Virus genome (UHGV): UHGV-0170246
Length of the DNA: 45,982 nt
From: a virus
Direction: 5' to 3' (one strand)
Translations under genes and position numbers: made by a program
Notes under the pieces: generated by a model
Database searches by the model: none
Told to the model about the DNA's origin: nothing
What the model saw: the letters and a program-made list of their open reading frames with translations, nothing else
Shown: one piece after another, positions 684 through 34,227 of the stretch
Layout: each line of letters starts with the position of its first letter
Numbering within the stretch: position 1 is the first letter of the stretch

Positions 684-805
684 CTGGAGTTAGGCCAGTA
701 GTATGATGCTCGCAAAACGAGATCCAATTTAGATCCTTTTACTGGTGGATTATCGTTCGATCAGTGAGAGACTTCGTGCATGACCGAAAGTGTTGTGGTA
801 GAGTT

Positions 806-834
806 CTCTTAAAACCACGTAAAGTGGTTATAAT
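806..834 (+). promoter_or_regulatory. Candidate repA promoter: perfect -10 TATAAT (829-834) overlapped by a repressor-type operator palindrome
   Basis: TATAAT read directly; -35 is weak; the palindrome at 813-829 abuts and overlaps the -10. Confidence 0.4.
813..829. promoter_or_regulatory. Operator-like palindrome AACCAC-N5-GTGGTT (AACCACGTAAAGTGGTT)
   Basis: Perfect 6-5-6 inverted repeat; same half-sites as the palindromes in the cI/cro-like intergenic region (10533-10652) and at 9781-9797. Confidence 0.55.
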
Positions 835-870
835 TGTGGGTGTCTGGTTGAAAAGTGACCAGATATGGAA

Positions 871-953
871 ACAAAAAGCCCGCAGATAAATCTGCGGGCT
901 TCTTGCGACATCCACGGAAAGGAAAACCAACAACTAACCATGGGCGCCTCGAC
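871..953 (-). ncRNA. Candidate CopA-like antisense RNA of the repA leader
   Basis: Minus-strand promoter (rc of 983-988 gives TTGCGT -35, 16-nt spacer, rc of 961-966 gives a perfect TATAAT -10) followed by a 9-bp GC-rich hairpin (877-900) and a U-run on the minus strand; geometry matches IncFII copA/copT, but coordinates are inferred. Confidence 0.4.
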
Positions 954-998
954 TACTCCCATTATACGTTGGTTTTCCGTGGACGCAAGAGCGAACAT

Positions 999-1847
999 AT
1001 GGATAGACCAATGCCGTCTCTACGTTCAGCTTACGTTTGTAATTTGTCGCCGGAGTTCCAGCCTCCAAAGCACCATACGCACAAGCTGCCGCTGGTGTTA
1101 TCTGATGCTTTACAGCGCATTAATGGTCGTGATCTTACGTGTGAGGTTGCGTTCTACGTTAATCAACCGTCAGAGCGGAAACGCCGGATAAACGAGCATC
1201 GTCGTCGGGCGATTAATGCTGTGATTGCTGCGATTTTGCACCATGTAAACATCATTTCTAAGCGGGTTCTGGCCAGTGCTGAGGCGTTGGCTGATTTTTG
1301 CGGCCTGTCTACCGTATCCGAAGCTGGGAACAAGTCTATAACGCGCTGTACAAGGGCGTTGTCGCAACTGAAAGAGTTAGGTTTTATTGATTATGAACGT
1401 CGCTGGGATCGGGTGAATAAACAGTATTGGCCAGCGAAAATCGAGATTCGTGATCAACTGCTGGAAACAGTTGGTATTACTGAACAAGCATGGAGACGTG
1501 CGGTTAGCCAGAAACTTAATTACTTCAATGCGAAGAATAGCGAACGGCTTAAAAAAGCGATAACGGAGGCTGATTATAAGCGTATTGTTATTCAGGAGCA
1601 GATGGAGAATGTATGGCGTCAGAGGAAGACGGCCAGAGAGATAAAGGCAAAACAGAAAGCAGCGGAGAGAGCTGCGCGTCTTGTTCAGGAAAAGGGAGAG
1701 GCCGAACTTCGTCATCAAATCACTAGAGAGGTTAGCCAGGAATTTGCTGATGGCATGTATCCTGGTGCTGACCTTGCATATTTACGCTCCCTCGTTGAGC
1801 AGCGTTATAACAGGCTAAGAAAGACCTGGAAATCACTCCAACATTAA
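999..1847 (+). CDS. repA: Plasmid replication initiator, IncFII RepA1-like
   Basis: In-frame ATG inside ORF 855-1847 gives 282 aa, close to RepA1 length; motif GLSTVSEAGNKSITRCTRALSQLKELGFIDY resembles the R100 RepA1 region as recalled. The GTG at 855 is probably an ORF-finder extension. Confidence 0.7.
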   Translation: MDRPMPSLRSAYVCNLSPEFQPPKHHTHKLPLVLSDALQRINGRDLTCEVAFYVNQPSERKRRINEHRRRAINAVIAAILHHVNIISKRVLASAEALADFCGLSTVSEAGNKSITRCTRALSQLKELGFIDYERRWDRVNKQYWPAKIEIRDQLLETVGITEQAWRRAVSQKLNYFNAKNSERLKKAITEADYKRIVIQEQMENVWRQRKTAREIKAKQKAAERAARLVQEKGEAELRHQITREVSQEFADGMYPGADLAYLRSLVEQRYNRLRKTWKSLQH

Positions 1848-5645: not shown

Positions 5646-6791
5646 TTATGGTCTGCTTTTCTGTGCCAGCTTATCAGCACATGTTTTTATCAGATCCTGT
5701 AGTGTCCTGGCTGGCAGGTTTGCATCCAGTACGCTGAGTATGCTGTTGTGTTCTGCTTGGTCGACTACTTTGCCTGTCGGTGGTAGTAGCTTGAGCTGAG
5801 GATTCAGGTTTTCGTCAAAGCTGATAAGTGCTCTGGCGTTTCTGAGCAGATCAAGAAGTAAGGCTGATATCACATTTTCCTGAGTCATTGCTGGCAGACT
5901 TAGCGCCGCTTTGGTTTTCCCTGTTGCCTTGTCAAACTCCTTGATTAGTTCCTTCCTGTAGTTCGGTTCCGTTAATAGCCGATTATGCTCTGTTGCCGCG
6001 CGGATAATCGTTTTTTCCTGGTATAGTCGTTTAGCCAGATCACGCTCGTACTGTGTTTTTAACACGCTGCTGATAGCGTTAAAGGCTTCAATGTAGGCCA
6101 GCTTGATATCTTTCACGCTTGGACCGTCGATGCTCTCCATGAGCAAGGTAAATCCGTCTTTTGTCATGCGATAGATTGTTATTTCGCGGTCGCTTCCTTC
6201 CAGCGGTCGTTGCTCTTTAAAGAAGTGACGCGCCGCAGCTGTGCGAGGAATGCGTAACGCATCGATGGCCATAACGATGGAATTGTTTGTGGTGCTGAAT
6301 GCCTGGGCAACATCGGCTGAGGTTGTGAGTGGCTCGTTGTTGCACACCTTAATGTAATACATTGGTTTAGCGTTGAGCGTATCGACAACCTCACGAGCAT
6401 TGTTTGGTGAGACGGTTACGGTCGCGGCCGTTTGCGCGTTCTGGTTGAAGTAGCAGTCTTCCAGCCGTTCGAATACATCCCACGCCTGATCGGTTTCGAG
6501 CATTTTAGCGTGACGTGCAGCCCCGCGTTCTGTCCAGAGGATGAGGGAGCGGACTTTAGGTGAAACTGGATTTTGAGAGTAGTTTAAAGCTACCCGCAAT
6601 TCTTTAAGGTCATTACCAACAACTTTGAAAAAGTGTTTCCCTTCAACGAAACGTGCTTTGTTCTCATGATGATTCTGGCGAATACGCACCGGCTCAGTGC
6701 CGTAAAGCTGTGCTAGTAACTCGGTAGTAATGACAGGGATTTGGTTATGCAGGATAGGCTGTAGGGTGTTAACGGTCGGAAGCGTTTTCAT
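5646..6791 (-). CDS. Antirepressor-like protein (ORF6N-type N-terminus, Rha-like central region)
   Basis: 381 aa; N-terminal pattern PVITTELLAQLYGTEPVRIRQNHHENKARFVEGKHFFK and internal TTSADVAQAF segment typical of phage Ant/Rha-type regulators (recalled domain patterns). Confidence 0.55.
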   Translation of the reverse strand: MKTLPTVNTLQPILHNQIPVITTELLAQLYGTEPVRIRQNHHENKARFVEGKHFFKVVGNDLKELRVALNYSQNPVSPKVRSLILWTERGAARHAKMLETDQAWDVFERLEDCYFNQNAQTAATVTVSPNNAREVVDTLNAKPMYYIKVCNNEPLTTSADVAQAFSTTNNSIVMAIDALRIPRTAAARHFFKEQRPLEGSDREITIYRMTKDGFTLLMESIDGPSVKDIKLAYIEAFNAISSVLKTQYERDLAKRLYQEKTIIRAATEHNRLLTEPNYRKELIKEFDKATGKTKAALSLPAMTQENVISALLLDLLRNARALISFDENLNPQLKLLPPTGKVVDQAEHNSILSVLDANLPARTLQDLIKTCADKLAQKSRP

Positions 6792-6979
6792 TTTGCACCT
6801 CCCATAACTACTTTGGTTACGAGGGAGATTTTTGCGTCAGAAACAGCGTTATCGTTGCTGGCGATGCGCATAGCTTCGCGCTCGATGATTTCAGCCAGGC
6901 GGAATTTATCGGCGTATGAGGCTTTCTTGAGAAGGATCTTTACGAGGTTGACGTAATAGTCATGGGGTAAGTTTGTCAT
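6788..6979 (-). CDS. Small hypothetical protein, first gene of the antirepressor operon
   Basis: 63-aa ORF; its stop overlaps the antirepressor start (ATGA). Confidence 0.35.
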   Translation of the reverse strand: MTNLPHDYYVNLVKILLKKASYADKFRLAEIIEREAMRIASNDNAVSDAKISLVTKVVMGGAK

Positions 6980-7394
6980 GGTGATAGTTCCCTTAAAGGT
7001 TAAGGATACTCACCACCGTCTGGTTCCAATCATTGGGTGGTGAGACGTACAGGGTTGGAACTACCGGTCACCATGGAATCCGGCGAGTCTTACGACTCCC
7101 CCGCACGCCCCACCATAATTTGGGTGTAGCAGTGCTTTACGCATAAAAAAACCGCTAACGCGGTATGCGCCATGATGATTATCGGGGTTCCAATCCCGAC
7201 CGTAGATTTTGCTACGGCTCGGAAAGTGTCCACCAATGGCGCATTTATGTCAATACAGAGGGATTTTAACAGAGACAACCACATAGCGTGGGTTTATTGG
7301 TAGGCAGAAACAAAAAAACCGCCCTATTGAGGACGGTTCTTTCGTGCTGATCGGATTCGCGGTCCTTTCAGCATAACGTCGTTGTACTAATACA

Positions 7395-7414
7395 ACCACG
7401 CAAGCACAAACAGC
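7395..7414. repeat. Direct repeat copy 1 (ACCACGCAAGCACAAACAGC)
   Basis: 19/20 identical to 7645-7664, about 250 bp downstream, in an ORF-poor region. Confidence 0.6.
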
Positions 7415-7644
7415 AACTACATTCTTACCCAACTGAGGTGAATAGTCCACTATTCATATAAAAAAATTTAGCTCATTAGCTCATGCAAAATGAAGGTTTT
7501 TAACTTATTTACGTGTAATCTCATGTAATAAAAGCGTTTTTTATTCCTTCATTATGAAGGGTATGACGTGTAATATGGCTTGGGGCCTTTCCGCCGATTC
7601 GCACCCGGGCACTGACTTTCAGGAAAGGATTATCCACTTGCCGT

Positions 7645-7664
7645 ACCACGCAGGCACAAACAGC
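7645..7664. repeat. Direct repeat copy 2 (ACCACGCAGGCACAAACAGC)
   Basis: See copy 1. Confidence 0.6.
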
Positions 7665-7728
7665 GTGCTTGCTCTCGCGTCATTTTCGTCGGTGGGGATG
7701 CCGTGAAACGGCCTGTAAGGGCCACACA

Positions 7729-7851
7729 ATGAAAAAATACTACATGTGTATTTTTATCGTTGTTACTGGAGCTTTGTTTACGCCACATGGGGAGGGTTGG
7801 AAGATTACTGATAACGCTCTGAATGTGACGATAAACATTAGCAGCAAGTAG
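7729..7851 (+). CDS. Possible small hydrophobic peptide (40 aa)
   Basis: In-frame ATG of ORF 7669-7851; one predicted transmembrane stretch (YYMCIFIVVTGALF); followed at once by a strong terminator; no recognisable family. Confidence 0.2.
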   Translation: MKKYYMCIFIVVTGALFTPHGEGWKITDNALNVTINISSK

Positions 7852-7856
7852 CGATT

Positions 7857-7880
7857 AGGCCCCTTCGGGGGCCTTTTTTA
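7857..7880 (+). terminator. Rho-independent terminator
   Basis: 7-bp stem AGGCCCC/GGGGCCT with TTCG tetraloop followed by TTTTTT. Confidence 0.75.
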
Positions 7881-8028
7881 CTGCAACCTGCATTTGATAG
7901 CTGTTTACCATTGCAGTAGCTTATATACCGTAAGAGCCACAAGATGTGGTTACGATTTCAATACGGGGTTGATATGAAAAAGCGGTATGACGAATTTGAT
8001 GGTTTCTAAGAGACGTTGACCTCTAATG

Positions 8029-8276: not shown

Positions 8277-8525
8277 TTACTTCTGGTTGTATTGAGCCTT
8301 GAGTAACTCAAAAGATTTTGTCAGCACTTCTTTCAATGACATATCCATTGAACTGGCGAACGTTTTGTACTCGCGTTTAAATTCAGGGTCGACGTTAAAC
8401 GCCATTTGTGCCCCACCTGATTTGGTTCTGGTTGGCGTTTCAGTCGGGTCGAAAACCTGCGGTTGTTCGATCGATGGCGGTACGCCTTTGCTGTTCTTCT
8501 TTGGTGGTTTTGATGGTGCGGCCAT
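8277..8525 (-). CDS. ParG-like ribbon-helix-helix centromere-binding protein
   Basis: 82 aa, immediately downstream of parA; unstructured basic N-terminal tail and C-terminal RHH-like segment (FNVDPEFKREYKTFASSMDMSLKEVL). Confidence 0.6.
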   Translation of the reverse strand: MAAPSKPPKKNSKGVPPSIEQPQVFDPTETPTRTKSGGAQMAFNVDPEFKREYKTFASSMDMSLKEVLTKSFELLKAQYNQK

Positions 8526-8537
8526 GTGTATCCCCTC

Positions 8538-8570
8538 TTATATAAATCTATAAAACTATAATTATATATT
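8538..8570. repeat. AT-rich motif locus (TATAAATCTATAAAACTATAATTATATATT) downstream of parG
   Basis: Member of the dispersed TATAATTATATA(AAT) motif family. Confidence 0.55.
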
Positions 8571-9237
8571 ACGCGGCAGTAGTCAGAGCCTCAAGCTGGT
8601 TGATAATCCCCTGAATAACGTCGTCTGCCTTTTTGCGTGGCGCAACGTATGAGCATTCAATGAGGCTTAAGCCCTTATCCTGAGCTTTGCTCAGAGCTGG
8701 CTTGTGGGGAATGTACTTATCGACAACAAAGTATGGCGTATTAGCCAGGTACTCTTGGGCTTCAATATAGTCAGCTTCATTTTCAGCCGCGCCGGAAAAC
8801 ACCATGCAAATTTTCTTGATTGGCACACCCTTTTTAACGATGCCGTGAGCAGTGTTAACGGTGGTTTCCAGGTCATCGGTAGAGAATCGGGTTGGCAAAA
8901 TAACCATATCCAGAAATTCAGATAGCTTCGGTACTGATTCAGATGCGTAGGCACCGCCATCAACGATAACCAGGTCGTATACTTCTGATTCGATGATTTT
9001 CTGGACTTGTGATGGTGTGCCGCACGGCTGCGCCGCGATTGCTGGTTCGATATTGTTGGCCATTCTGCGTTGTACCCAACGCGTTACCGTTCCGTTAAGC
9101 ACATCCATATCGATCAGGCATACATTCCAGCCAGCCTTTGCATAAGCAACTGCTAAAGCACGGGCAATTGTTGATTTGGTTACGCCGCCTTTTCCGTTGA
9201 AAATACCTACAGAGATAGTCATTTGTCGAGACTCCAT
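8569..9237 (-). CDS. parA: ParA-family partition ATPase (small type Ib ParA/ParF-like)
   Basis: 222 aa; deviant Walker A GKGGVTKST near the N-terminus; followed by a small RHH protein gene. Confidence 0.8.
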   Translation of the reverse strand: MESRQMTISVGIFNGKGGVTKSTIARALAVAYAKAGWNVCLIDMDVLNGTVTRWVQRRMANNIEPAIAAQPCGTPSQVQKIIESEVYDLVIVDGGAYASESVPKLSEFLDMVILPTRFSTDDLETTVNTAHGIVKKGVPIKKICMVFSGAAENEADYIEAQEYLANTPYFVVDKYIPHKPALSKAQDKGLSLIECSYVAPRKKADDVIQGIINQLEALTTAA

Positions 9238-9246
9238 GTGTTTGGT

Positions 9247-9350
9247 TATATAATTCTATAAATCTATATTTATAGAACGAGGTAAGCATAACCAACTTTT
9301 TGGCGGATGGAAAGTGTTTTATATAATTATATAAATCTATAATCATATAA
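9247..9350. repeat. Two AT-rich motif blocks upstream of parA (candidate par promoter/centromere)
   Basis: TATATAATTCTATAAATCTATATTTATAGA and TTATATAATTATATAAATCTATAATCATATAA read directly. Confidence 0.55.
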
Positions 9351-9372
9351 GCGGGCGTTAGCCCGCTTGCAG

Positions 9373-9747
9373 TCAGAGGTCAGCTATCGTTGATATCAGT
9401 TGATTTGCTAGCTGTCGCTGTTTACGTGAGAGGGTTAGAGCAGCTTCTGAGCGGTCGCTAAGAGGGGTGTTTTCATCAAGAATCATGAGGCATACAGAAA
9501 TAATAGCCCTGTTATATGCCATCAATGGCTGGCACAGCTTCGATACCGCTGGCACATCGTATTGCAAGGCCGTTTTGAGGCAGACTTTTTGTTCTGATGC
9601 CAGATGAAGGATAGATTCTATCCAGTCGATATCTTTCTCATTATCAATGATTTGGCATAACATACACTCAATCGCTATGTTCAACGCTTGGATTTCGATT
9701 CCAGCAGTGATCAGAGTTTCATTTTTATTGGCTGTATGTAATTCCAT
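9373..9747 (-). CDS. Hypothetical protein downstream of the repressor gene
   Basis: 124-aa ORF, same strand as the repressor; an operator-type palindrome lies between the two genes. Confidence 0.45.
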   Translation of the reverse strand: MELHTANKNETLITAGIEIQALNIAIECMLCQIIDNEKDIDWIESILHLASEQKVCLKTALQYDVPAVSKLCQPLMAYNRAIISVCLMILDENTPLSDRSEAALTLSRKQRQLANQLISTIADL

Positions 9748-9780
9748 GCGTAGCCTCTTTTATACTTTTACATGTTGTCA

Positions 9781-9797
9781 AAACCACATAATGTGGT
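9781..9797. promoter_or_regulatory. Operator-like palindrome AACCACATAATGTGGTT
   Basis: Perfect 6-5-6 inverted repeat, same half-sites as 813-829. Confidence 0.55.
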
Positions 9798-9839
9798 TTT
9801 TTTGAGCGTAGAAATGCACGGCTTTCGCCGTGCTGTGTA

Positions 9840-10496
9840 TCATAACCAGTTGACAACACTAACTACGCGGCCAAGAACTTTATAACGCTTAAATTCCTCG
9901 TTATTCAGATGCTTAGTGTTCATTTCAGCATCCCTTTCGGTTGACAGCATAACAGCATTGTCACCCGGTATGACTCTACAGTGCCTCAAAACAACCAGGC
10001 CATTTCTGTCTTCAAGGGCATAGATCCCCTCATGAATCTCTGTATCGTCTGTATTAATCAGGACTTGGGAGCCAGGGGATATTGTTGGTGACATTAACTC
10101 ATCGTTGCTCTGGAGAACTGACAGAGACGATGGGTTGATGTTCTTGCTTCGTAGAATCTCCTGTTCTATCGCCAGCACTGGCTTTTCTCCGGCGTGCGAT
10201 GCTATGTCATTTTTTATAGCTACAAGCCCAGGAATAACAGGAGCGTTAGTATTCTGGGGTGGGAACGGGTTATCTGTTAAGCACGCGATATAAGGCGCTG
10301 ATGCTTTCAGGGCGTGCGCGATTTTCTTGATGGCAGGTATCGATGGTTGTCTTAATCCGGCCTCATAGTTCTGCAAGGTGCTTAAGCCTATTCCAGTGAC
10401 TTGCTGGAGATCTCCGGCAGTCATGCCGGATTGTTTCCGTAGAGTCTGAATGCGCAGACCTATTTCTTTCTTGATGTTCTCGTCGTTGCTTTTCAT
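9840..10496 (-). CDS. CI-like phage repressor (N-terminal HTH, C-terminal LexA/S24-like domain)
   Basis: 218 aa; HTH TAGDLQQVTGIGLSTLQNYEAG; C-terminal region has the overall S24 pattern but the GxSM catalytic motif is not obvious on hand alignment. Confidence 0.75.
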   Translation of the reverse strand: MKSNDENIKKEIGLRIQTLRKQSGMTAGDLQQVTGIGLSTLQNYEAGLRQPSIPAIKKIAHALKASAPYIACLTDNPFPPQNTNAPVIPGLVAIKNDIASHAGEKPVLAIEQEILRSKNINPSSLSVLQSNDELMSPTISPGSQVLINTDDTEIHEGIYALEDRNGLVVLRHCRVIPGDNAVMLSTERDAEMNTKHLNNEEFKRYKVLGRVVSVVNWL

Positions 10497-10532
10497 GTCT
10501 CATCAATCGTGAATGGTGGGTTATTTATACAT

Positions 10533-10652
10533 TACCACATTTAGTGGTTTTCACATGGTAAGACGAGAGGTGGACCACAAATAGAAGGTTATTTTTTGTT
10601 TCGCCCATTGAAAAACTCACGATATGTGGTTTTAATACCACATATCGTGGTT
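10533..10652. promoter_or_regulatory. Immunity-region operator cluster: three palindromes of the ACCAC-N5-GTGGT type
   Basis: TACCACATTTAGTGGTT (10533-10549), ACTCACGATATGTGGTT (10615-10631), TACCACATATCGTGGTT (10636-10652) between the divergent repressor and rightward early genes. Confidence 0.65.
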
Positions 10653-10670
10653 TTAACTGGAGTTCGTTAA

Positions 10671-11165
10671 ATGACCTTTCAGGAGTGGGTTGACGAAAAT
10701 GGAGGCCAAATTGGTGTTGCCAGAAAGTTTGGCTTTACGTCATCACTGATTGGTGCCTGGTATCGCTTCGAGAGATTCCCTCGTGCGGATAACCTGACGC
10801 TGCTGGTGGCGTATTCGGAAGGCCGGATTAACGTCCAGCAATGGGCGGCAGATTTTGCCGAACGTCAGCGCCAGCGTAGCGATGGCACATCGGTTCGGCA
10901 GAACAAGATCAAAGGGAATCTCCCTGTTAACTGCTTATCAAGGCTGAAAGCGGTTTTCTCTGAGCTGGGGATGCCTGCGGAGCGTTGCAATCTACGCGGT
11001 CCGCGATTCATTGCTCGCTGGAAACACTCACACGTAACCGTTTCAGAGGTTCGTGATGCGATTACCGTGCTGGAGCTTAAGAATAAAGATTCCAGCGATA
11101 TCGAGCTGATTCATAAGGAGATTAGCAACGCCCGGCGTTCAGCACTTGGGAGGCTTGAGGAATGA
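10671..11165 (+). CDS. Putative HTH regulator, first gene of the rightward early operon (Cro/CII position)
   Basis: 164 aa; divergent from the repressor across the operator cluster; function is by position only. Confidence 0.35.
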   Translation: MTFQEWVDENGGQIGVARKFGFTSSLIGAWYRFERFPRADNLTLLVAYSEGRINVQQWAADFAERQRQRSDGTSVRQNKIKGNLPVNCLSRLKAVFSELGMPAERCNLRGPRFIARWKHSHVTVSEVRDAITVLELKNKDSSDIELIHKEISNARRSALGRLEE

Positions 11166-11677
11166 TGATTCTGGCCTTCTTTGGTGATAATCACCAGATT
11201 CAATCGCAGGTGGTGCACTACCTTGATCAAACGATTAAAGGATTTGTTATCGATCATATTGATAACGATAGCAAACATCTATCTGTAGATCAGAAAATTG
11301 GACGTGTGCAGCGACTGGTTGCCAGCCGTAACAGACGTGACACCGTAACAGTAGTCACGGGGATAACGGAGGTCATGGAGTACCAGATGTTGCTGCATCG
11401 TGGAGCTGTTTTCTGCGTTCTTCCTGGCATTCTGCCAGCAATTCTTGCTCGTGGTTTTGTCCCTATTGATGAGTCGTTTTTATATGTAACCCCAAGCCGT
11501 TCCCTTCTGGATACGGAGGCGAAGCGTCGCATTTATATGATGCCGGACGAGGCATTTTCTGAATGTTACCGCCGTGAAATGAGGTTGGGTAAACGAGAAG
11601 TGTCTGTTGTTCGTGATGGCAGGTTTTTAAGAAGCCGCACGGTGAAAAGCACCAGAAATGACGGGGGCCATCAATGA
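11162..11677 (+). CDS. Hypothetical protein
   Basis: 171-aa ORF; ATGA overlap with the upstream gene. Confidence 0.45.
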   Translation: MMILAFFGDNHQIQSQVVHYLDQTIKGFVIDHIDNDSKHLSVDQKIGRVQRLVASRNRRDTVTVVTGITEVMEYQMLLHRGAVFCVLPGILPAILARGFVPIDESFLYVTPSRSLLDTEAKRRIYMMPDEAFSECYRREMRLGKREVSVVRDGRFLRSRTVKSTRNDGGHQ

Positions 11678-11907
11678 GTAGTTATGTTCGCGGTGCTGCG
11701 ATGCATTGCCAGAATCCCCAATTCTGGCGCTTTCTGACCAGTAAAACAGGGAAGAACGTTTCAAACAGTTCTGAGGCCTCTGTGATTCTGCGTGAGTTTT
11801 GCGGGATCTCATCCCGTAAAGAGCTGGCAAAGAACTACGCGGCCAGAAGCATGTATGTCCAGTTAATCAACGAGTTCAACCTCTTTATCAATGGTAAGGG
11901 GCGCTGA
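11674..11907 (+). CDS. Hypothetical protein
   Basis: 77-aa ORF in an operon of overlapping reading frames. Confidence 0.35.
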   Translation: MSSYVRGAAMHCQNPQFWRFLTSKTGKNVSNSSEASVILREFCGISSRKELAKNYAARSMYVQLINEFNLFINGKGR

Positions 11908-22861: not shown

Positions 22862-23533
22862 ATGACAAAACATCTTAATGTGGTTTCTTTACCACTTTCT
22901 GTGTTGATTGGTTATGAAAAGAACGCTCGCACACACTCCGTGGAGCAGGTAGATCAGATTGTTGCCAGCATACAGGAGTACGGATGGACTAATCCGATCC
23001 TGATAGACGAGAACAACGTTGTAATTGCTGGTCATGGTCGAATTGTTGCGGCCACTCAGTTGGGGATGGATGACGTTCCCTGCATTGTTCTGGAAGGGCT
23101 AACGGAGAATCAGAAGAAGGCATATCGTCTGGCCGACAACCGTATTCCGCTGAATGCTGGTTGGGATGAAGAGTTGTTAAGCGCGGAACTTGCAGATCTT
23201 GCGGCCGATGATTTTGCTCTGGACTCAATTGGTTTTACTCAGCGCGAACTGGATAACTTATTGAGTGCGGCGGTCTACGATGACACAGAGGGTATGGATA
23301 TCCCATTTGAGAAGGATGAGGCCAAATCAGGCGTAAAAGTTCAGTACCTGTCATTTGGAGGTCATAAAATCCCAGCAACGGATGGGAAGCGGATCGTTTT
23401 GACTGCGCGGTATCTCGTTATGTTGATGATAATGGCAGCTATATCGGATTTGTATCCGCATTGCTGGCTGGGGAGGTGTGCTGATGCTTCATCTCAATTA
23501 CGACATAACGCACCTACGCGGCGCGGAATATAA
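22862..23533 (+). CDS. ParB-like nuclease domain protein (paralogue 1)
   Basis: 223 aa; ParB/Srx motif AGHGR; about 55% identical by eye to the protein at 26151-26741 over the N-terminal ~130 aa. Confidence 0.7.
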   Translation: MTKHLNVVSLPLSVLIGYEKNARTHSVEQVDQIVASIQEYGWTNPILIDENNVVIAGHGRIVAATQLGMDDVPCIVLEGLTENQKKAYRLADNRIPLNAGWDEELLSAELADLAADDFALDSIGFTQRELDNLLSAAVYDDTEGMDIPFEKDEAKSGVKVQYLSFGGHKIPATDGKRIVLTARYLVMLMIMAAISDLYPHCWLGRCADASSQLRHNAPTRRGI

Positions 23534-33883: not shown

Positions 33884-34227
33884 TGAACTCCTTCAAAGAG
33901 GTTATAGCGCAAGATATTTCTGCAATATTCCTCAATGAAAAAGAGTTTGCCGATACATATAACATAGACGGCAAGGATATCCTTGCCGTTATTGATACAG
34001 ACCTTATTCATGAGCGTAATAAACGCTCATATGCTGAGTTTGCAGAGGGAATAAATCAGGGACAAATAATATTATTTGTTTCAAGAAAAGATTTTCCTGT
34101 TATCCCTGTCAAAGACCAGTCAATGAAAATCAACGGTAAAAATTATATTGTTGATGAAGTATCAGATAATGTTGGTGTATTGGAAATAACTCTCACTGTT
34201 AATACTAACAGAGGAATGCCGATTTGA
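33883..34227 (+). CDS. Putative head-tail connector (lambda FII-like)
   Basis: 114 aa; by size and position, weak pattern similarity. Confidence 0.35.
   Translation: MNSFKEVIAQDISAIFLNEKEFADTYNIDGKDILAVIDTDLIHERNKRSYAEFAEGINQGQIILFVSRKDFPVIPVKDQSMKINGKNYIVDEVSDNVGVLEITLTVNTNRGMPI

Follow-up and report, generated by a model that had tools for sequence, protein, structure and literature searches.

Repeated ACCAC-N5-GTGGT palindromes as probable operators of the immunity repressor of an IncFII-type phage-plasmid

UHGV virus genome UHGV-0170246, analysed here as one stretch of 45,982 nucleotides (hereafter the window), represents nearly the whole of a circular E. coli phage-plasmid of ~48 kb, which combines myovirus structural genes with a ParA partition system and an IncFII-type RepA. 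Its immunity region raises the question of whether the palindromes lying between a repressor gene and the divergent early genes (10533-10652) are operators and, if so, which promoters they govern. An earlier note had described these palindromes as a three-operator switch like the right operator (OR1-3) of lambda, with further copies elsewhere in the element. Our analysis of the sequence makes it highly probable that the (A)ACCAC-N5-GTGGT(T) palindromes are operators of the CI-like helix-turn-helix (HTH) repressor encoded at 9840-10496, through which it would shut off the early genes, limit its own synthesis and throttle repA. At least five, and probably six or seven, operator-type sites of this uncharacterised repressor family are well supported. 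The predicted layout is a phased 2 + 1 + 1 array between the divergent genes, with one more site each in the 3' flank of the repressor gene and at the repA promoter, a description that replaces the OR1-3 label, and a further site may stand upstream of the antirepressor operon.

We evaluated the motif against chance expectation and found a clear enrichment of its paired form. Exact ACCAC-N5-GTGGT occurs four times in the window (814-828, 9783-9797, 10534-10548 and 10637-10651), compared with none in 100 dinucleotide shuffles and 0.03 expected from 300 Markov-1 simulations. In the same simulations, one-mismatch sites were also in excess (5 vs 0.74 expected; simulation maximum, 4), but two-mismatch sites were not (13 vs 11). 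The half-site words alone occur at expectation (ACCAC, 25 vs 25.8; GTGGT, 59 vs 56.3), so the non-random feature is their paired arrangement. An independent repeat finder recovered the same family, with copies at 9773, 10524, 10606 and 10627, as the sole multi-copy family within 9700-10700. For a non-circular genome-wide scan, which the earlier note had proposed, we built a 21-bp position weight matrix (PWM) from 11 sites of relatives only (Salmonella plasmids and locus L016). Six window sites (9783, 10637, 814, 10534, 10616 and 7278) scored 21.9-30.3, all of them outside protein-coding genes, against a maximum of 16.9 in 60 simulated windows. The one-mismatch sites at 7936, 40706 and 44736 scored within the simulated null and were rejected as operators.

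The array occupies the 174-bp region between the repressor gene (9840-10496, minus strand) and a Cro-like gene (10671-11165, plus strand), where four sites centred at 10541, 10581 (degenerate), 10623 and 10644 are spaced by 40, 42 and 21 bp, as they are in relatives. The two right-hand sites frame a predicted rightward early promoter, PR (10608-10636, plus strand), composed of TTGAAA (10608-10613), a 17-bp spacer and TTTAAT (10631-10636). Putative operator O2 (10616-10630; CTCACGATATGTGGT, that is, CTCAC-N5-GTGGT with two mismatches; PWM 23.3) occupies the spacer with its centre at about -21, and putative operator O1 (10637-10651; ACCACATATCGTGGT, exact; PWM 29.5) starts directly after the -10 hexamer with its centre at about +1/+2. 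In a simple sigma-70 weight-matrix scan, PR was the top plus-strand promoter candidate, at the same position, in the window and in the related loci L001, L002 and L016, and these four diverged intergenic regions retain TTGAwA, a spacer of 17-18 bp and, separating the two right-hand sites, an AT-rich hexamer. At the repressor end, an exact match (10534-10548; ACCACATTTAGTGGT; PWM 25.8) stands at about -19 of a predicted leftward extended -10 promoter similar to the promoter for repressor maintenance (PRM) of lambda (10529-10537, minus strand; TGgTAATGT). This promoter abuts the site, and TGnTAA[TA]GT is the only leftward candidate conserved in position in the window, L001, L002 and L016. Between the PR pair and the repressor promoter lies a half-degenerate site (10574-10588; ACCACAAATAGAAGG) with a good left half and the right half GAAGG.

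These positions bear out the placement of the sites between a divergent CI-like HTH repressor gene and an early rightward operon, and the sites overlap the best conserved promoter candidates. The proposed OR1-3-like arrangement did not survive, as the PR -10 has a site on either side, the third is 82-103 bp distant and a half-degenerate fourth stands in between. The three palindromes had also been credited with the same half-sites; those at 10534 and 10637 are indeed exact, but the left half at 10616 differs from ACCAC at two positions. Similarly, the reported distance of 4 bp between two of them holds for 17-mers, but the 15-bp cores are separated by 6 bp (TTTAAT, 10631-10636). The degenerate fourth site, the strong site at 7278-7292 and a palindrome with 14-bp arms at 10617-10650 were new to the present analysis. 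The last of these is perfect in the window lineage and joins the two PR operators and the -10 hexamer into a single unit (CACGATATGTGGT-TTTAAT-ACCACATATCGTG). We rejected this 34-bp palindrome as a unit of its own, as its extended symmetry is absent from the Salmonella and L016 relatives and is probably incidental. A distal leftward promoter (TTTTCA-17-TAACCT) was likewise discarded, being unconserved in L016.

We then compared the array with its equivalents in syntenic relatives, namely Salmonella pAR-0407-1 and CP053324 (repressor identity, 65-66%) and the IMG/VR loci L015 (65%) and L016 (62%). In this 62-66% group the four-site array keeps its half-sites and its 40-41/41-42/21 bp spacing while the N5 cores and the flanks diverge. 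The conserved order, read from the repressor side, is ACCAC-N5-GTGGT, ACCAC-N5-G[AG]AGG, C[CT]CAC-N5-GTGGT and ACCAC-N5-GTGG[GT], and the N5 varies between relatives as GATAT, GAATT, ATATC or TGAAC at one site and as ATATC, GATAT, AATAT or GAATC at the next. O1 is kept in place with a different N5 in the Salmonella and L016 relatives. The O2 homologue C[CT]CAC-N5-GTGGT is found in all relatives, always 21 bp from O1, so that its weaker left half is itself conserved. ACCAC-N5-G[AG]AGG is kept in L001, L002, L015 and L016 despite diverging flanks, at distances of 40-41 bp (left operator) and 41-42 bp (O2). The 10534 site holds the same position in all relatives of the E. coli/Salmonella clade, with an identical core in the Salmonella type and ATTAA for ATTTA in L016, and the Serratia-type relative carries ACTACAAAATGTAGT at the equivalent place.

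The same selectivity was observed over shorter and longer distances. Among ten near-identical E. coli copies and one variant with a 94% identical intergenic region, the substitutions fall in the N5 cores (9789, 9791, 9792 and 10624) and the flanks, affecting three of the five N5 positions at 9788-9792, and a half-site is touched by one change only, in which the T-run that begins at its last base (10651) is shortened by one base and GTGGT stays intact. In the Serratia-type group, whose repressor is 29-36% identical, the equivalents are less symmetric (ACTAC-AAAAT-GTAGT and ACTGC-AAAAT-GTGGT; ACCCC-GAAAT-GTGGT at repA). Vibrio phage K303 (repressor identity, 26%) has TTATCA-ATACCACGTTTTGTGGT-TATAAT-TACCAC, in which the promoter spacer holds one site and a second directly follows the -10. 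K303 thus shows the same promoter-operator layout, and the motif and layout therefore travel with the repressor/cro module. The selective conservation of the half-sites in diverged relatives supports their reading as operators. A profile search of genome contigs with the repressor alignment returned no relative.

Outside the array, the motif copies that had been noted upstream of repA (813-829) and beside the repressor-adjacent gene (9781-9797) were confirmed as exact cores at 814-828 and 9783-9797, and both are conserved in relatives. The former (ACCACGTAAAGTGGT; PWM 27.8) is centred at about +10 of a predicted repA promoter with an extended -10 (796-804, plus strand; TGgTAGAGT), of which TGnTAGAGT is conserved in the window (E. 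coli), the Salmonella plasmid and the Serratia plasmid. The equivalent sites, ACCACGTTGTGTGGT in Salmonella and ACCCCGAAATGTGGT in Serratia, keep the same offset from the TAGAGT -10. The 814 site also fills the spacer of a lineage-specific TATAAT (829-834) that directly follows it. The gene downstream (~999-1847, plus strand; start codon approximate) encodes an IncFII-family RepA replication initiator (Pfam IncFII_repA, E = 5.5e-44), whose Salmonella homologue is annotated "plasmid replication initiator RepA". Its leader contains a predicted antisense RNA (866-965, minus strand) with a TATAAT (the reverse complement of 960-965) and a ~90-nt transcript (866-955), which folds into two stem-loops with a strong terminator (minimum free energy -40.6 kcal/mol, z = -6.6). 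The predicted RNA is CopA-like in position, but an Rfam scan of the leader gave no CopA match. No copB-like open reading frame (ORF) was found upstream of repA (684-998), which holds just short overlapping ORFs without a family match.

The 9783 site (ACCACATAATGTGGT) has the highest PWM score, 30.3, and is conserved in Salmonella and L016 as ACCACGAAACGTGGT. It lies just past the repressor-gene terminator and upstream of a 124-amino-acid ORF of unassigned function (9373-9747, minus strand) that gave a PHROG hit only (phrog_7632) and is syntenic in the Salmonella and Serratia relatives. The likely terminator of the repressor transcript is a GC-rich hairpin after the repressor stop codon (GCACGGC-N4-GCCGTGC; 9817-9834, minus strand), which is kept with loop changes in the Salmonella and Serratia relatives and is followed by a minus-strand T-run. 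The -35 regions of weak candidate promoters for gene 9373-9747 overlap the 9783 site, and the gene is possibly controlled from it. Among the positioned sites, this one has the least clear role. In several Serratia-type and Vibrio loci (L003/L005, L017-L020, L025 and L026), two or three direct half-site repeats replace the palindrome beyond the repressor gene (for example, TAATGTGGTTA...TTATGTGGTTA, 21 bp apart, or GCGTGGTA three times), which hints at a different binding mode there. The candidate sixth site is located at 7278-7292 (ACCACATAGCGTGGG; PWM 21.9).

We next considered which protein would read these sites. The repressor (218 amino acids, minus strand) has an N-terminal HTH_3 domain (Pfam, E = 4.5e-11) and a PHROG assignment as "transcriptional repressor", which makes it the obvious candidate. 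The enterobacterial homologues with retained GT[GA]GT half-sites all share its predicted recognition-helix segment, STLQNYEAG, unchanged. The C-terminal domain matched Peptidase_S24 at 18.4 bits, below the 23.3 cut-off, and no Lys is invariant in the C-terminal half across three homologues. Neither BLASTP nor hhalign aligned the repressor with LexA, so that its catalytic residues could not be located. The first gene of the rightward operon (10671-11165) encodes a 164-amino-acid protein whose N-terminal ~66 residues are probably a Cro/YdaS-type HTH. It had no direct Pfam hit and no match in the PDB by single sequence or profile; its N-terminal domain matched, at an hhalign probability of 97%, a 73-amino-acid protein at the cro position of Aliivibrio phage H905, which in turn scored 29.9 bits against Pfam YdaS_toxin (cut-off, 30) and E = 4e-4 against P22_Cro. 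Through this transitive alignment, a Cro-like competitor is likely to be present. The two genes co-occur in every relative found, and comparative data therefore cannot tell which protein reads which site. Cro of phage phiKO2 binds only one of the five operators of its CB repressor (PMC4997575); by analogy, one may speculate that the conserved middle element ACCAC-N5-GRAGG is a special Cro-bound site of this type.

From these observations we infer a model for the binding protein, the promoters, cooperativity, copy number and induction. A repressor dimer would bind each palindrome, which the Cro-like protein probably recognises too. In the plasmid-prophage state, repressor on the two sites bracketing the PR -10 (at about -21 and +1) would block the early rightward operon, and at higher concentration it would fill the site that lies at about -19 relative to the extended -10 promoter of the repressor gene, giving negative autoregulation as at lambda OR3. 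The half-site element and the 40/42/21-bp spacing, which corresponds to whole helical turns, point to repressor binding cooperatively along one face of the helix. At repA, repressor at about +10 would hold down transcription of the initiator, and its loss at induction would raise replication. The 9783 site may act on the neighbouring gene or be an accessory site for DNA looping. The presence of the immunity motif where a CopB-type repressor would act, together with the absence of a copB gene, suggests a phage repressor in the CopB role. A more ambitious version of the model, which we offer tentatively and consider doubtful as a whole, is that in this family the phage repressor has assumed the part of CopB in an IncFII-type replicon. 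A single protein would thereby determine lysogenic silencing as well as plasmid copy number, through a phased four-site array wrapping ~100 bp and looping to the single site 750 bp away beyond its own gene; a falling copy number would mean less repressor and more repA transcription, and complete loss of repressor upon induction would make this replicon the engine of lytic replication.

Several points weigh against the operator model as a whole or in part. The PR -10 (TTTAAT) lacks the usual A at position 2, and a stock scanner did not call PR for that reason. No convincing conserved promoter was found for gene 9373-9747. The 7278 site precedes the start of the isrK/C4-antirepressor transcript by ~67 bp, beyond the limits of the core promoter, and the Salmonella relative, which has other sequence in this stretch, lacks it. 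In Vibrio the half-sites are similar even though the recognition helix differs, and there is therefore no clean covariation of helix and half-site that would link the motif to the repressor over the co-inherited Cro-like protein. Literature searches found no published binding, footprint or transcript results for the element.

One alternative makes the Cro-like protein (10671-11165), or some other DNA-binding protein of the element, the main or sole reader of the palindromes, with the repressor recognising a different sequence. Conservation cannot separate the two proteins, as their genes co-occur throughout the relatives, and Cro and repressor do differ in specificity in phiKO2 and PY54 (PMC4997575). 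Nevertheless, the 174-bp intergenic region holds no other repeated palindrome, and the positions at both PR sites, the repressor's own promoter and repA suit a prophage repressor better than a lytic-phase protein. The repA site of N15/phiKO2 is, moreover, bound by CB and not by Cro (PMC4997575). We thus regard this alternative as unlikely, and the Cro-like and repressor readings are not mutually exclusive.

Self-complementary sites might also act as RNA or DNA hairpins, that is, as terminators or processing sites, rather than as protein-binding sites. Several of the palindromes precede T-runs, a scanner listed 10617-10650 as terminator-like on both strands, and the 9783 site (AAAACCACATAATGTGGTTTTTTT) resembles a weak bidirectional terminator. 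However, all sites share their half-site sequence beyond mere self-complementarity, two of them occupy non-transcribed promoter positions (the PR spacer and -19), the palindrome with 14-bp arms is not conserved in relatives, and the direct half-site repeats downstream of the repressor gene in the Serratia-type and Vibrio loci cannot form a hairpin. A hairpin function is therefore very improbable. It is hardly credible at all that the sites serve plasmid maintenance, as RepA binding sites or as a centromere for the pair of ParA and an 82-amino-acid protein, although repA has one of them upstream and ~0.5 kb separates the cluster from the par genes: no site falls in the par promoter region (9238-9372), the densest cluster overlaps the early phage promoter, and the same motif and layout recur in 36-kb Vibrio phages, for which just the repressor/cro module was compared. 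Operators of the phage repressor thus remain the reading that we favour.

If the repressor holds the prophage in this way, induction would probably proceed through the Ant-type antirepressor encoded at 5646-6791 under the control of C4/IsrK antisense RNAs, and not through RecA-stimulated self-cleavage. The antirepressor gene (minus strand) combines the Pfam domains ORF6N and pRha (ORF6N + Rha-type) and is preceded by a 63-amino-acid ORF (6788-6979, minus strand) whose stop overlaps its start, a C4 antisense RNA (7033-7120, minus strand; Rfam 84.3 bits, gathering score 45) and an isrK RNA (7145-7218, minus strand; above the Rfam gathering score). This module of isrK, C4, short ORF and antirepressor (5646-7218, minus strand) has a layout like that of P1/P7 immI (c4-icd-ant), and its promoter, TTGACA-17-GACACT, is conserved in the Salmonella relative. 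The only CTGT-N8-ACAG in the window is at 34196, and no LexA box lies near the antirepressor or repressor gene. The sub-threshold S24 match, the failure to align with LexA, the lack of an invariant Lys and of a nearby LexA box, and the presence of an antirepressor with C4/IsrK genes make antirepressor-driven induction the better guess.

In function, the nearest known system is the immB region of N15 and phiKO2 (CB repressor; OR1-3 and OL1-2), whose logic the element shares without belonging to that family. These telomere phages are also phage-plasmids with divergent repressor and cro genes and operators between them. Their CB repressor binds three OR operators and two operators at the repA promoter and lowers copy number (PMC4997575), a dual placement seen here at the sequence level. 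Their repressor lacks a recognisable Ser/Lys self-cleavage dyad and their induction is driven by an antirepressor (PMC4997575, PMC7969092), the route predicted here for a repressor whose S24 match is likewise below the cut-off. The operators themselves are unrelated (16-bp T-A-N10-T-A in N15/phiKO2, PMC4997575, vs ACCAC-N5-GTGGT), and when the repressor was compared by tblastn with 50,697 phage records, neither N15 nor phiKO2 nor PY54 was among the 98 that matched at E <= 1e-5. N15 and phiKO2 are linear, with a protelomerase and a primase-type RepA, whereas the element studied here is circular and has an IncFII-type RepA with a predicted antisense RNA in its leader (no search aimed at a protelomerase was made). 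They further have two repA sites and three adjacent OR sites, compared with one repA site and a phased 2 + 1 + 1 array here. Since control of repA by a prophage repressor is already established for N15/phiKO2, our result extends a known design and overturns nothing.

Compared with lambda, 434 and P22, the region has the same divergent repressor and early genes, palindromic operators bound (here by prediction) by HTH dimers, and two adjacent PR sites about two helical turns apart. Lambda OR3 stands at about -19 relative to PRM, which matches the position of the 10534 site at the repressor promoter. Lambda, however, has three abutting operators shared by PR and PRM, with centres ~23-24 bp apart, whereas the sites here are non-contiguous and the autoregulatory one lies 82-103 bp from the PR pair. 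There is no site at the -42 activating position and there is an additional conserved half-degenerate site; the distant sites (repressor 3' flank, repA) are single rather than a triplet like that of the left operator (OL), and the S24 self-cleavage domain is not confirmed (18.4 vs 23.3 bits). P1 and P7 are likewise plasmid prophages with repressor sites (predicted here) dispersed over several promoters including a replication function, and in their immI, as here, a C4 antisense RNA precedes a short ORF and the gene of an antirepressor. The operators of P1 are asymmetric 17-mers, in contrast to the palindromes found here. P1 C1 controls the lytic replicon and not the plasmid RepA, and the repressor here is an HTH_3 protein. 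The replication end resembles the IncFII CopB/CopA systems of R1 and R100, with an IncFII-family RepA, a structured antisense transcript and terminator predicted in the leader, and a predicted repressor site on the repA promoter. Unlike in R1/R100, no copB-like ORF precedes repA, where the upstream gene encodes a serine recombinase, the leader has no Rfam CopA match, and the promoter-proximal site carries the phage immunity motif.

The element is common. At 99% identity, positions 9300-11700 match three myoviruses plating on Yersinia pestis (vB_YpM_39/41/44), and at >=95% identity they match 58 non-mobilizable plasmids, which measure roughly 46-50 kb and come almost entirely from Escherichia. 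The 174-bp intergenic region was present in 71 of 5,426 complete E. coli genomes (72 occurrences, 71 on plasmids and one on a chromosome), including the quality-control strain ATCC 25922 (plasmid NZ_CP009073.1, 48,488 bp; Cro-like protein 97.6% identical). Relatives were found in Salmonella, Serratia and Klebsiella and among phages plating on Yersinia pestis, and the complete ones whose records were opened are circular plasmids of 46.8-50.7 kb. What is proposed here is a switch of a conventional kind in an element that has apparently gone unstudied; the type of system is an established one, of which this is a new member. Literature searches returned no description of its regulation, and papers on phage-plasmid groups and on ATCC 25922 do not describe the family. 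As ATCC 25922 carries a member of the family, experiments and existing RNA-seq data of that strain could test the model directly. The operator consensus further offers a handle for predicting immunity groups among these phage-plasmids, for constructing repressor-controlled mini-replicons and for studying a phage switch wired to an IncFII-type replicon.

Additional features were noted elsewhere in the window. The 8277-9237 segment (minus strand) encodes a small ParA (222 amino acids; 8569-9237) followed by an 82-amino-acid protein without a family match, the layout of a type Ib partition system (ParA and a small centromere-binding protein), and its upstream region (9238-9372) contains no ACCAC-type site. 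Two weak matches, ACATCTTAATGTGGT and ACCACTTTCTGTGTT, lie 21 bp apart at 22870 and 22891, at the 5' end of a ParB/Srx-like gene, and are present in Salmonella too; the pair (22870-22905) was rejected as operators, as its PWM scores are within the null and the surrounding stretch is uniformly conserved. Near the 7278 site, an Rfam ryfA match (134.6 bits; 7581-7879, plus strand) contains a small hydrophobic ORF (MKKYYMCIFIVVTGALF...) resembling a type I toxin, and a divergent minus-strand stretch (~7310-7470; terminator at ~7312-7340) is a candidate antitoxin small RNA; this region is missing entirely from the Salmonella relative. An Rfam tRNA gene (67 bits) lies inside the phage-plasmid at 19729-19801 (plus strand). 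The serine recombinase gene (resolvase/invertase; 129-683) adjoins oppositely oriented tail-fibre-assembly genes, which are located at the 3' end of the window (~44.7-45.9 kb) and are annotated in the Salmonella relative (L004, 11845-14578). This arrangement suggests an invertible host-range segment like the C segment of P1 or the G segment of Mu.

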